From: Escherichia coli
Lineage (GTDB): Bacteria > Pseudomonadota > Gammaproteobacteria > Enterobacterales > Enterobacteriaceae
NCBI RefSeq assembly: GCF_003334255.1
Contig: NZ_QOWU01000148.1
Length of the DNA: 1,812 bases
Reading direction: 5' to 3' (one strand)
In this document: positions 1 to 1,812 of the stretch, piece by piece
Layout: every line of letters begins with the position of its first letter
Position numbering within the stretch: position 1 is the stretch's first letter
Translations under genes and position numbers: made by a program
The notes under the pieces: generated by a model
Database searches by the model: none
Seen by the model: only the letters and a program-made list of their open reading frames with translations
Told to the model about the DNA's origin: nothing

Positions 1-1
1 G

Positions 2-1812
2 AAGCACAAACGCGAGAATCCGCCCACGGTGGTATCGGAAGCCATGGCAGAACTTCGCGCCCTGCCCTCGTTTCTTGCCAGTCCGCTCATCCGGGACCTG
101 GCTCGCCTGAGCCGCAAACAGGAGAGCGCACGCCGGGAAGGGCTTAAGAATAACAGCGCATATGCGGCGGATAACTTCGTTCGTCATGGGCTGCGTGCCC
201 GCCTGAAACGTATCGCCCGTGTGAATGAACGCTTTGCCACCCCGGCCTTTAAGGCCACCGCCGCCCGCGAACGGCTGGATGAACTGCTTATACTGCCGCA
301 GCTGAGCCGTGACGAAATCCAGCACCTTGCCACCCTGACCGCCACCGCGTTTTCCGCCGCACTGGAGCGCGCATGTGATGAGATCATCGAAAAGACCGGC
401 AGGGGTGACGATGACCTGTTCACCTGGTTACTGACCTACCAGTCACTGGCACACATGGCGTTAAAACTGGGTATCACGCCACCCTGCTGGCCGTCGCTGG
501 AAATCAGGCCAGACCGCCGCACCGCCCCCAACCCGGAACGGGTGCCGGGTGCGGTCATGCGCCTTTCCTGTGCGACATGGTGGAACAGTCAGTTAAGACA
601 CCTCCGGGACATCTGGCGTGAAGAGCTGTTACGCGCCGCAGGTCTGGTGTCACGTAAGACATCGGTATATATCAGCCATGAAGCGTTACTGGACTGGCGC
701 GAAAAACGCCAGCGCACCCGCGATTTTCTGAAGGCCTGGGACATCGAGAACGAAGAGGGAGAACGGTTCAGCCTTGAGGATATCTACTGGGCAGGTCTCT
801 CTAATCCGCGTAACCGCCGTAACGAGATGATGACCTGCGCCCGGGGAATGGAGCAGGTCGCCGAAGCACGCGGCGACGTGGCGTTTTTCGTCACCGTCAC
901 AGCCCCTTCCCGTTTTCACAGCGTGAACGATGACGGCAGTCTGAACCCGAAATACTGCGGGGCAACGGTACGCGATGCCAGTGATTATCTGGTTTACCGC
1001 TTTTTCGCCGCCGTCCGCAGGGCCATCGACAAGGCCGGGCTGGGCTGGTACGGCGTGCGCACAGTGGAGCCCCACCACGACGGTACACCGCACTGGCACA
1101 TGCTGGTATTCACCAGCCAGGAAAACGAAGCCCGTATCACTGAAATCATGCGCAACGCCGCCATCAGGGAGGACCGCGCAGAGCTGGGTGATGATATCTC
1201 CCCGCGTTTTAAATGCGAAAAAATCGACCCGGCAAAAGGCACACCGACAAGCTATATCGCGACCTATATCGGTAAGAACCTGGACGCCAGCGCCTTCATG
1301 GGAAATGACCCGAAAACCGGCAAACCTTACATCGATAAGGAATCAGGCAAAACCATGGCCGAAACCGTGGAGAACGCCATCGGCTGGGCAGGCCTTCACC
1401 GCATCCACCAGTTCCAGTTCTTCGGTATCCCGCCCCGCCAGGTATGGCGCGAACTCCGCCGCCTTGCCGGGCAGATGGCCCGTAACCCGACTGCCCCACA
1501 GCGTCTGGACCATGACGACATTGACGCCATACTGGCCGCCGCCGACGTGGGATGTTTTGCCACCTATATCACCCGCCAGGGTGGTGTGCTCATTCCCCGC
1601 AACACGTACCTGGTCCGCACCGCATACGAAACTGCCGAAGAGGCCAACGACTACGGCGAATTCCCGCAACGCATTTACGGCGTCCGCGCCCCGTTACTCG
1701 GGGAGCGCTACACCATATGCACCCACCCGGACACCTGGAAACTGGTCAGAAAAGAAGCGAAAGCCGACAACAGCACGGACGAGGATTTTGACGTTGGGGG
1801 CGGCTTCGCCGC
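2..1812 (+). CDS. Replication initiation protein, rolling-circle HUH nicking endonuclease of the phage P2 gpA / 186 A family ('replication endonuclease'); partial, open at the 3' end and probably at the 5' end
   Basis: Seen in sequence: frame 2 is open for 603 consecutive codons with no stop (manual translation begins KHKRENPPTVVSEAMAELRALP and ends TDEDFDVGGGFA). It contains, in canonical order, motif 1 FFVTVTAP (881-907), the HUH motif HWHMLVF (1091-1111) and the paired-tyrosine motif YIATYIGK (1253-1276). Every ORF in the supplied track overlaps this frame on the other strand or in another frame. Established knowledge: this motif order with a Y-x-x-x-Y catalytic pair is characteristic of superfamily I rolling-circle initiators (phiX174 gpA, P2 gpA). 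Inference: P2 gpA is ~760 aa with the catalytic tyrosines around residue 450 (from memory); the pair here is at window codons 418/422, so the true start is likely a few tens of codons upstream and the stop a few hundred nt downstream. An in-frame ATG at 44-46 is a possible but unproven start. Confidence 0.9.
1091..1111 (+). other. HUH metal-binding motif (His-hydrophobic-His followed by hydrophobic residues) within the replication initiator CDS
   Basis: Codons cac tgg cac atg ctg gta ttc translate to H-W-H-M-L-V-F in the CDS frame, preceded by EPHHDGTP. The position between motif 1 and the tyrosine motif matches the canonical layout of rolling-circle Rep proteins. Confidence 0.75.
1253..1267 (+). 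other. Paired catalytic tyrosine motif (Y-x-x-x-Y) of the rolling-circle initiator
   Basis: Codons tat atc gcg acc tat translate to Y-I-A-T-Y, followed by I-G-K-N. Two tyrosines separated by three residues and followed by a lysine two residues later match the phiX174 gpA / P2 gpA active-site arrangement (established knowledge; alignment not run). Confidence 0.7.

Follow-up and report, generated by a model that had tools for sequence, protein, structure and literature searches.

A probable P2-like prophage replication initiator gene segment in Escherichia coli with an intact catalytic core

An open frame of the P2 gene A family

The DNA analyzed here, referred to throughout as the window, is a stretch of 1,812 nucleotides of contig NZ_QOWU01000148.1 from the E. 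coli assembly GCF_003334255.1. Frame +2 is open from nucleotide 2 through nucleotide 1810, with 0 stops in 603 codons, and each of the other five frames is interrupted by 9 to 31 stops. The alignment with close relatives runs ungapped over 1812 columns and reveals neither a frameshift nor an indel anywhere in the window. By using hmmscan, we were able to match the encoded protein to the Pfam family Phage_GPA (PF05840) with an i-Evalue of 2.9e-106 over model positions 1 to 320 of 321. A second profile match, to PHROG 91 ('nicking at origin of replication'), has an E value of 4.8e-218 and spans profile positions 65 to 626 of 852, which places both ends of the gene outside the window. These results bear out two claims of the first-pass annotation, namely that the 1.8-kb frame is uninterrupted and that the gene is correctly labeled as a replication gene of the P2/186 type. 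Relative to its closest relatives, the window covers codons 86 to 688 of 837, or 72% of the gene, and approximately 85 N-terminal and 149 C-terminal codons lie beyond it. The gene is of an ordinary, already annotated kind and is already known. Coordinates of the features are collected in Table 1.

We also considered whether the frame and its motifs might have arisen by chance in GC-rich DNA, with no real gene present. The window is 60% GC, and long spurious open reading frames do occur, as exemplified by the antisense frame at nucleotides 686 to 1099. However, the probability of 603 stop-free codons estimated from the base composition is only about 5e-9, and the profile matches have E values from 1e-106 to 1e-218. 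Furthermore, GC3 is 0.70 versus a GC2 of 0.47 in frame +2, as in a real coding frame. The antisense frame itself, which could encode 137 aa, contains a stop codon in relatives of the 80% allele class and was therefore rejected as spurious. We give the chance explanation no credence.

Additional searches of the window yielded few other features. No NCBIfam model matches the window protein, and Rfam has zero matches in the window at E values up to 1. Repeats in the window are restricted to short two-copy matches at the level expected by chance, and promoter-like and terminator-like sites in the window show no excess over shuffled controls.

Table 1. Features of the 1,812-nucleotide window
Feature	Position (nt)	Strand	Basis or comparison
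Internal part of a P2 gene A-type replication endonuclease gene	2-1810	+	Open frame, PHROG 91, alignment to P0001
Phage_GPA (PF05840) domain, aa 104-429	311-1288	+	Pfam hmmscan
Rep motif 1, FFVTVTAPSRFH, aa 295-306	884-919	+	Aligned on P2 ITLTAPSKYH 324-333
Rep motif 2, EPHHDGTPHWHMLVF, aa 356-370	1067-1111	+	Identical to P2 391-402 and 186 378-389 over EPHHDGTPHWHM
HUH histidines H364 and H366, within motif 2	1091-1093 and 1097-1099	+	Align with P2 H399/H401
Rep motif 3, YIATYIGKN, aa 418-426	1253-1279	+	Aligned on P2 YIAKYISKN
Tyrosine pair Y418 and Y422, followed by K425 and N426	1253-1255 and 1265-1267	+	Align with P2 Y450/Y454 and 186 Y442/Y446
Thr421 between the tyrosines, +3 from Y418	1262-1264	+	Column count: Lys in 139 of 144 (P2 K453)
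8-residue insertion DPKTGKPY, aa 436-443, after motif 3	1307-1330	+	Compared with P2, 186 and most of the family
Last 11 nt, GGCTTCGCCGC, matching the flank immediately 5' of the P2 nick site	1802-1812	+	P2 alignment

Catalytic motifs, their conservation and the predicted fold

The first-pass annotation had located an intact catalytic core in nucleotides 881 to 1276, with all three Rep motifs free of frameshifts and stops. This interval begins and ends on codon boundaries and encodes 132 in-frame residues, AFFVTVTAPSRFH...EPHHDGTPHWHMLVF...SYIATYIGK, and the last residue of motif 3 (N426) is encoded by the 3 nt past position 1276. We aligned the window protein with P2 gpA (NP_046795, 761 aa) and 186 A (NP_052289, 694 aa), whose sequences were taken from the annotated phage records, and found that the histidine pair and both tyrosines are kept at the corresponding positions (Table 1). 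The HUH motif reads H364-W-H366 and is followed by the hydrophobic residues M-L-V. No catalytic histidine or tyrosine is substituted, and H306, D360, H364, Y418 and Y422 are all present, so the description of the core as intact proved accurate.

The two reference proteins share with the window protein the PF05840 domain, the order of the motifs and an identical EPHHDGTPHWHM segment. However, their overall identity to the window is just 35 to 37%, and the full-length relatives of the window, at 837 aa with an N-terminal extension, are longer than either P2 gpA or 186 A. In addition, P2 gpA carries K453 where the window has Thr, and neither P2 nor 186 has the 8-residue insertion. The same three motifs, and an origin located inside gene A, are described in PMC3986222, which cites Odegrip & Haggard-Ljungquist 2001 for Y450 and Y454 of P2 as the active-site tyrosines.

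To define conservation across the family, a HMMER search of 1.84 billion cluster representatives was used, which recovered 2,417 family members at E values up to 0.001. A 144-sequence alignment was assembled from 141 of the representatives listed by this search together with the window, P2 and 186. In this alignment H306, D360, H364, Y418 and Y422 are each present in 144 of 144 sequences, and the neighboring motif residues are nearly as constant (E356 and K425, 143 of 144; H366, 142 of 144; H358, 136 of 144). The columns of motif 1 are likewise strongly conserved, with T298 and T300 each present in 142 sequences, P302 in 141 and S303 in 131. All of these residues occur in the window, as do three hallmarks of the family: motif 1 (uFuTuTxPSxxH), the HUH pair of motif 2, and the two active-site tyrosines, three residues apart, followed by K-N. 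A separate core comparison of 13 sequences, drawn from Peduoviridae of Enterobacteria, Pasteurellaceae, Vibrio, Burkholderia and Pseudoalteromonas plus CTXphi RstA, revealed that E284, T300, P302, S303, H306, E356, P357, D360, H364, H366, Y418, Y422, K425 and N426 are invariant.

Of 56 alignment columns with a conservation of 90% or more, the window agrees with 51 and departs from the other five at C279, P415, T421, G461 and H469. The first four of these residues also occur in relatives within the core alignment (L005, phage P88, Cartapus or Fels-2). H469 lies just beyond the end of that alignment, and the close relative L001 has H469 as well. Because all five departures are found in relatives, none of them represents a private lesion.

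The departure at position 421 falls between the two active-site tyrosines. Phage P88 (L006), the 80% allele class (L005) and the cluster representatives P0121 and P0122 all share the YIATYIGKN sequence with the window, and an insertion at the DPKTGKPY site is common to the P88-like clade. Judged by this distribution, Thr421 is a clade-specific trait and not a product of decay. P88 is a mitomycin-inducible, plaque-forming phage (PMC5285337), and because it has the same YIATYIGKN, Thr421 appears to be compatible with function. A more far-reaching proposal would be that the P88-like clade, in which YxxK-YxxK has become YIAT-YIGK and the 8-residue insertion is present, constitutes a mechanistically distinct two-tyrosine subtype whose tyrosines are chemically non-equivalent in a manner other than that of P2 gpA, and that it is also a Peduoviridae lineage lacking a deposited phage genome at the nucleotide level. 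We regard this proposal as unlikely.

A sequence search of the PDB detected no solved structure for the window protein. We therefore examined an AlphaFold2 model of residues 170 to 600, built on the 144-sequence alignment, which is very confident (mean pLDDT 94.7, pTM 0.91). In the model, a beta strand carries the HUH histidines and a helix carries the two tyrosines, and the protein is confidently predicted to adopt an HUH-like nuclease fold. Foldseek comparison of the model with the PDB gave weak matches with E values no better than 0.02, several of which are HUH domains. When a viral structure library was used instead, the model matched replication initiators of Microviridae as well as a replication protein from a Vibrio phage (E = 7e-29). 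These model-based matches fit the established placement of gpA with the two-tyrosine Reps of the phiX174 type.

The two-tyrosine (Y2) branch of the HUH superfamily includes gpA of phiX174 and other Microviridae, CTXphi RstA, and the Helitron (Helraiser) transposase. Compared with these Y2 members, the window protein has large additional N- and C-terminal regions that are specific to the gpA family, and its similarity to Helitron and parvoviral domains is insignificant (Pfam Helitron_like_N, E = 0.11; best Foldseek E value against the PDB, 0.02). The encoded protein is a two-tyrosine HUH endonuclease and, by analogy with P2, would have nicking activity.

Relatives, selection and prophage context

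A megablast search of 50,697 deposited phage records yielded no match at the nucleotide level. The best matches among deposited phage proteins belong to P88 and other Xuanwuvirus (Peduoviridae) and to Citrobacter phage Shae_phiSM, with 56 to 57% identity over 98 to 99% of the window. P88 resembles the window in its YIATYIGKN motif, in the insertion after motif 3 and in a near-identical origin core. Nevertheless, P88 differs in that its protein is 940 aa long, ParM-type partition genes lie downstream, and megablast similarity is absent.

Relatives are more readily found in bacterial genomes. Among 5,426 complete E. coli genomes, 62 contain a megablast relative, and all 74 matching places are chromosomal. 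The 57 E. coli relatives listed are each in a single piece and annotated 'replication endonuclease', and the relatives fall into three identity bands of 95 to 99%, 80 to 90% and 60 to 80%. The closest relative (L004) is on a Logan assembly contig from SRR12206293 and is 99.2% identical in nucleotide sequence; its 837-aa protein (P0001) is identical to the window protein at 596 of 603 positions, over residues 86 to 688. The next closest, from strain DETEC-S792 (L001; WP_271290489.1), has 98.8% nucleotide identity. Replication endonuclease genes of E. coli P2-like prophages such as these two are colinear with the window without gaps, at 97 to 99% protein identity and with 15 to 19 nucleotide differences. 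Three IMG/VR contigs containing the exact core 44-mer are relatives at 97.0 to 98.5% identity, and the 'replication endonuclease' matches in P2-like prophages of E. coli have 96 to 99% protein identity. The same 44-mer gave no match among the GTDB species-representative genomes, and a 46-mer across a private SNP gave none in JGI metagenomes. The protein searches likewise yielded no sequence identical to the window protein, P0001 with its 596 of 603 positions being the best.

Comparison with the 80% class (L005) over the whole window gave a dS of 0.89, a dN of 0.105 and an omega of 0.118, and the value for nucleotides 881 to 1276 is nearly the same (omega 0.117). In this core interval the window is identical in nucleotide sequence to L001 and L004. 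The gene has evolved under purifying selection. Compared with its close relatives, the window has just five nucleotides of its own, three of which match the 80% class. The changes that are truly private to the window are R108H (nt 324) and V444I (nt 1331), both of which are at columns that vary within the family. There is no sign of decay within the window.

Note that the dN/dS value against L001 is 1.19, although just 24 differences underlie it. The majority are located in a tract at the 3' end (nucleotides 1751 to 1807), in which L001 stands apart from the window and the 80% class alike. Because the differences cluster in this manner, we rejected relaxed selection as the cause and took the value to reflect a recombination mosaic. 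Both ends of the window (nucleotides 1 to 70 and 1733 to 1807) carry short tracts that are common to other allele classes, again indicating mosaicism by recombination.

In L001, L004 and L005, the gene resides in a complete-looking P2-like prophage. Genes for an integrase, an HTH repressor, Cox, a 3'-5' exonuclease and a Dam methylase are located upstream, and those for a MarR-type regulator, SSB, portal, terminase, scaffold, P2-family capsid, lysis and tail proteins are located downstream. Given these near-identical 837-codon genes in complete-looking P2-like prophages, the window gene probably lies in a prophage as well.

A gpA-type initiator could in principle be carried by another kind of element, such as a filamentous-phage or RstA-like element, a phage-plasmid, a satellite or a domesticated host copy. 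The family does include CTXphi RstA, with 41% identity over the core, and two records from a plasmid collection match the window at 97%. However, at lengths of 1.0 and 1.2 Mb both 'plasmid' records are almost certainly pieces of chromosomes, and we discounted them. The inspected relatives with identities of 97% or higher all reside in P2-like prophages on chromosomes, in the company of head, tail and lysis genes. No match in the complete E. coli genomes lies outside the chromosome, and a PADLOC search for defence systems matched nothing. We consider a different element to be highly improbable. Rather, we conclude with a probability of about 0.9 that the window comes from the interior of a gene A-type replication initiator gene, intact over this segment, which is carried by a temperate P2-like phage (Peduoviridae) that has integrated into an E. 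coli chromosome.

Predicted origin, proposed mechanism and implications

In P2, the nick is annotated at position 29892, inside gene A, within the context GGCATCGCCGC GCC^TCGGAGTCCTGTCAATAACTG (GCC^TCGG), and by similarity the 186 nick is at the corresponding place inside its own gene A. The alignment of the end of the window with this flank places the expected nick 3 nt past the window, and the origin core is consequently outside it. The relatives continue after the window-end position with ACCTTGGACTCGTGGCAATAACTG, which is identical in the 97 to 99% and the 80% classes. The corresponding P88 sequence differs from this continuation at only 1 of 33 nt even though its protein is only 57% identical, which is consistent with constraint at the DNA level. 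At the origin core the relatives have ACC TTGGACTCGTGGCAATAACTG, whereas P2 has GCC TCGGAGTCCTGTCAATAACTG. The predicted origin is GCCGCACC/TTGGACTCGTGGCAATAACTG.

General HUH enzymology (PMC5714925) and the specifics of P2 (PMC3986222) suggest how such a protein might operate. Literature cited in PMC3986222 attributes to P2 gpA site-specific nicking of a single strand, covalent attachment to the 5' end and action in cis. By analogy, H364 and H366, probably with a further conserved acidic or histidine residue of motif 2, would hold a divalent metal. Either Y418 or Y422 would then cut one strand at the origin, inside the coding sequence of the gene itself and a few bases past the 3' end of the window, and would become covalently joined to the 5' phosphate. 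The free 3'-OH would prime rolling-circle synthesis by host enzymes. After one round, the second tyrosine would cleave the regenerated origin, and strand joining would resolve the first linkage and release a circle. The nicking chemistry, the cis action and the roles of the individual tyrosines in this scheme are all extrapolated from P2 biochemistry.

The gene might instead belong to a defective remnant, in which the core has been kept but replication is no longer driven, owing to a truncation or frameshift of the gene beyond the window, a mutated origin or a cryptic surrounding prophage. The window contains only part of the gene and ends just short of the expected nick, and at approximately 1% divergence from intact relatives a recent inactivation would leave no trace within it. 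However, all 603 codons are free of lesions, the private amino acid changes are limited to the two at variable positions, and the relatives listed from complete E. coli genomes are all full-length, single-piece genes in complete-looking prophages. We therefore consider a defective remnant quite unlikely. The first-pass annotation had proposed a functional, rather than decayed, replication gene, and it is through the relatives that such a reading would gain its support.

With the window read as an intact segment of a P2-like initiator gene, the consequences are modest, and the importance of the finding beyond correct annotation is small. The substitution of Thr for Lys between the tyrosines offers a small testable point for specialists in HUH enzymes. 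A bona fide, selectively maintained initiator makes the element likelier to be replication-competent than to be a decayed remnant, and this is useful for judging whether a strain may carry an inducible prophage or may support P4-like satellites.

Residues around catalytic motif 3

The residue that lies between the two catalytic tyrosines is Lys in 139 of the 144 members of the family alignment (141 cluster representatives, the window, P2 and 186) but is Thr in the window, such that the usual YxxK-YxxK arrangement becomes YIAT-YIGK. The same change is carried by the allele class that is 80% identical to the window, by two cluster representatives recovered with HMMER (P0121 and P0122), and by the plaque-forming phage P88, and therefore Thr421 is a clade trait. 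Besides this residue, the window departs from columns conserved in at least 90% of sequences at four further positions, all of them common to related sequences. Directly past motif 3, the window also carries an eight-residue insertion that is absent from P2 and 186 and from most family members, whereas the P88-like clade shares it.

An antisense open reading frame was considered as a candidate gene and rejected. Because it is interrupted by a stop codon in the 80% allele class, it was judged to be a by-product of GC-rich coding sequence.

Features of the window and of related prophages (nucleotide positions are those of the window unless a relative is named; A2 is an alignment of 13 phage core sequences)
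Feature	Position	Setting	Basis
Antisense ORF, 137 aa, GTG start	686-1099, minus strand	overlaps motifs 1 and 2	
C for R	836-838 (aa 279)	≥90%-conserved column	C279 also in related phages or allele classes (A2)
P for A	1244-1246 (aa 415)	≥90%-conserved column	P415 also in related phages or allele classes (A2)
Thr421	1262-1264 (aa 421)	between both catalytic tyrosines	column count, 144-sequence family alignment
Insertion DPKTGKPY	1307-1330 (aa 436-443)	directly past motif 3	alignments
G for A	1382-1384 (aa 461)	≥90%-conserved column	G461 also in related phages or allele classes (A2)
H for R	1406-1408 (aa 469)	≥90%-conserved column	H469 also in close relative L001
Origin-like core ACCTTGGACTCGTGGCAATAACTG	L004 12056-12090; also L001, L005, L006 (P88)	beyond window 3' end	relatives' sequence
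Early region	L001 16183-17387; L004 6444-7648; L005 8190-9394	upstream of gene A	related prophages

A lineage found in prophages

When the whole window was compared with the phage collection, no deposited genome gave a nucleotide-level match, and its protein shares only 57% identity with the best phage protein, yet 62 of the 5,426 complete E. coli genomes have a relative, within complete-looking P2-like prophages. Thus, this Peduoviridae lineage is apparently known from prophages alone. Two PLSDB "plasmid" records (CP061270.1 and CP061233.1) each hold a 97% relative; their sizes, 1.0 and 1.2 Mb, suggest that they are chromosome fragments deposited as plasmids.

In the prophage copy from DETEC-S792 (L001), a Logan assembly contig (L004) and the 80% allele class (L005), the early region upstream of gene A includes a 3'-5' exonuclease gene followed directly by a small ParE-family toxin-like gene, which overlaps the beginning of the gene for a Dam-type DNA adenine methylase. 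Genes for a MarR-type regulator and SSB lie downstream of A.

Origin surroundings and mosaic ends

The P2 origin nick site is located within gene A, and the homologous position falls 3 nucleotides past the 3' end of the window (1802-1812 plus the bases beyond). The origin-like core found there in relatives is the same across allele classes that are otherwise 20% divergent, and that of P88 is almost identical.

Both ends of the window (1-70 and 1733-1807) are mosaic, and most of their variable sites match L005 rather than most of the 97-99% relatives. The dN/dS value of 1.19 for the window versus L001 is raised by these ends. Their agreement with L005 points to recombination among the A genes of P2-like prophages, including the surroundings of the origin.
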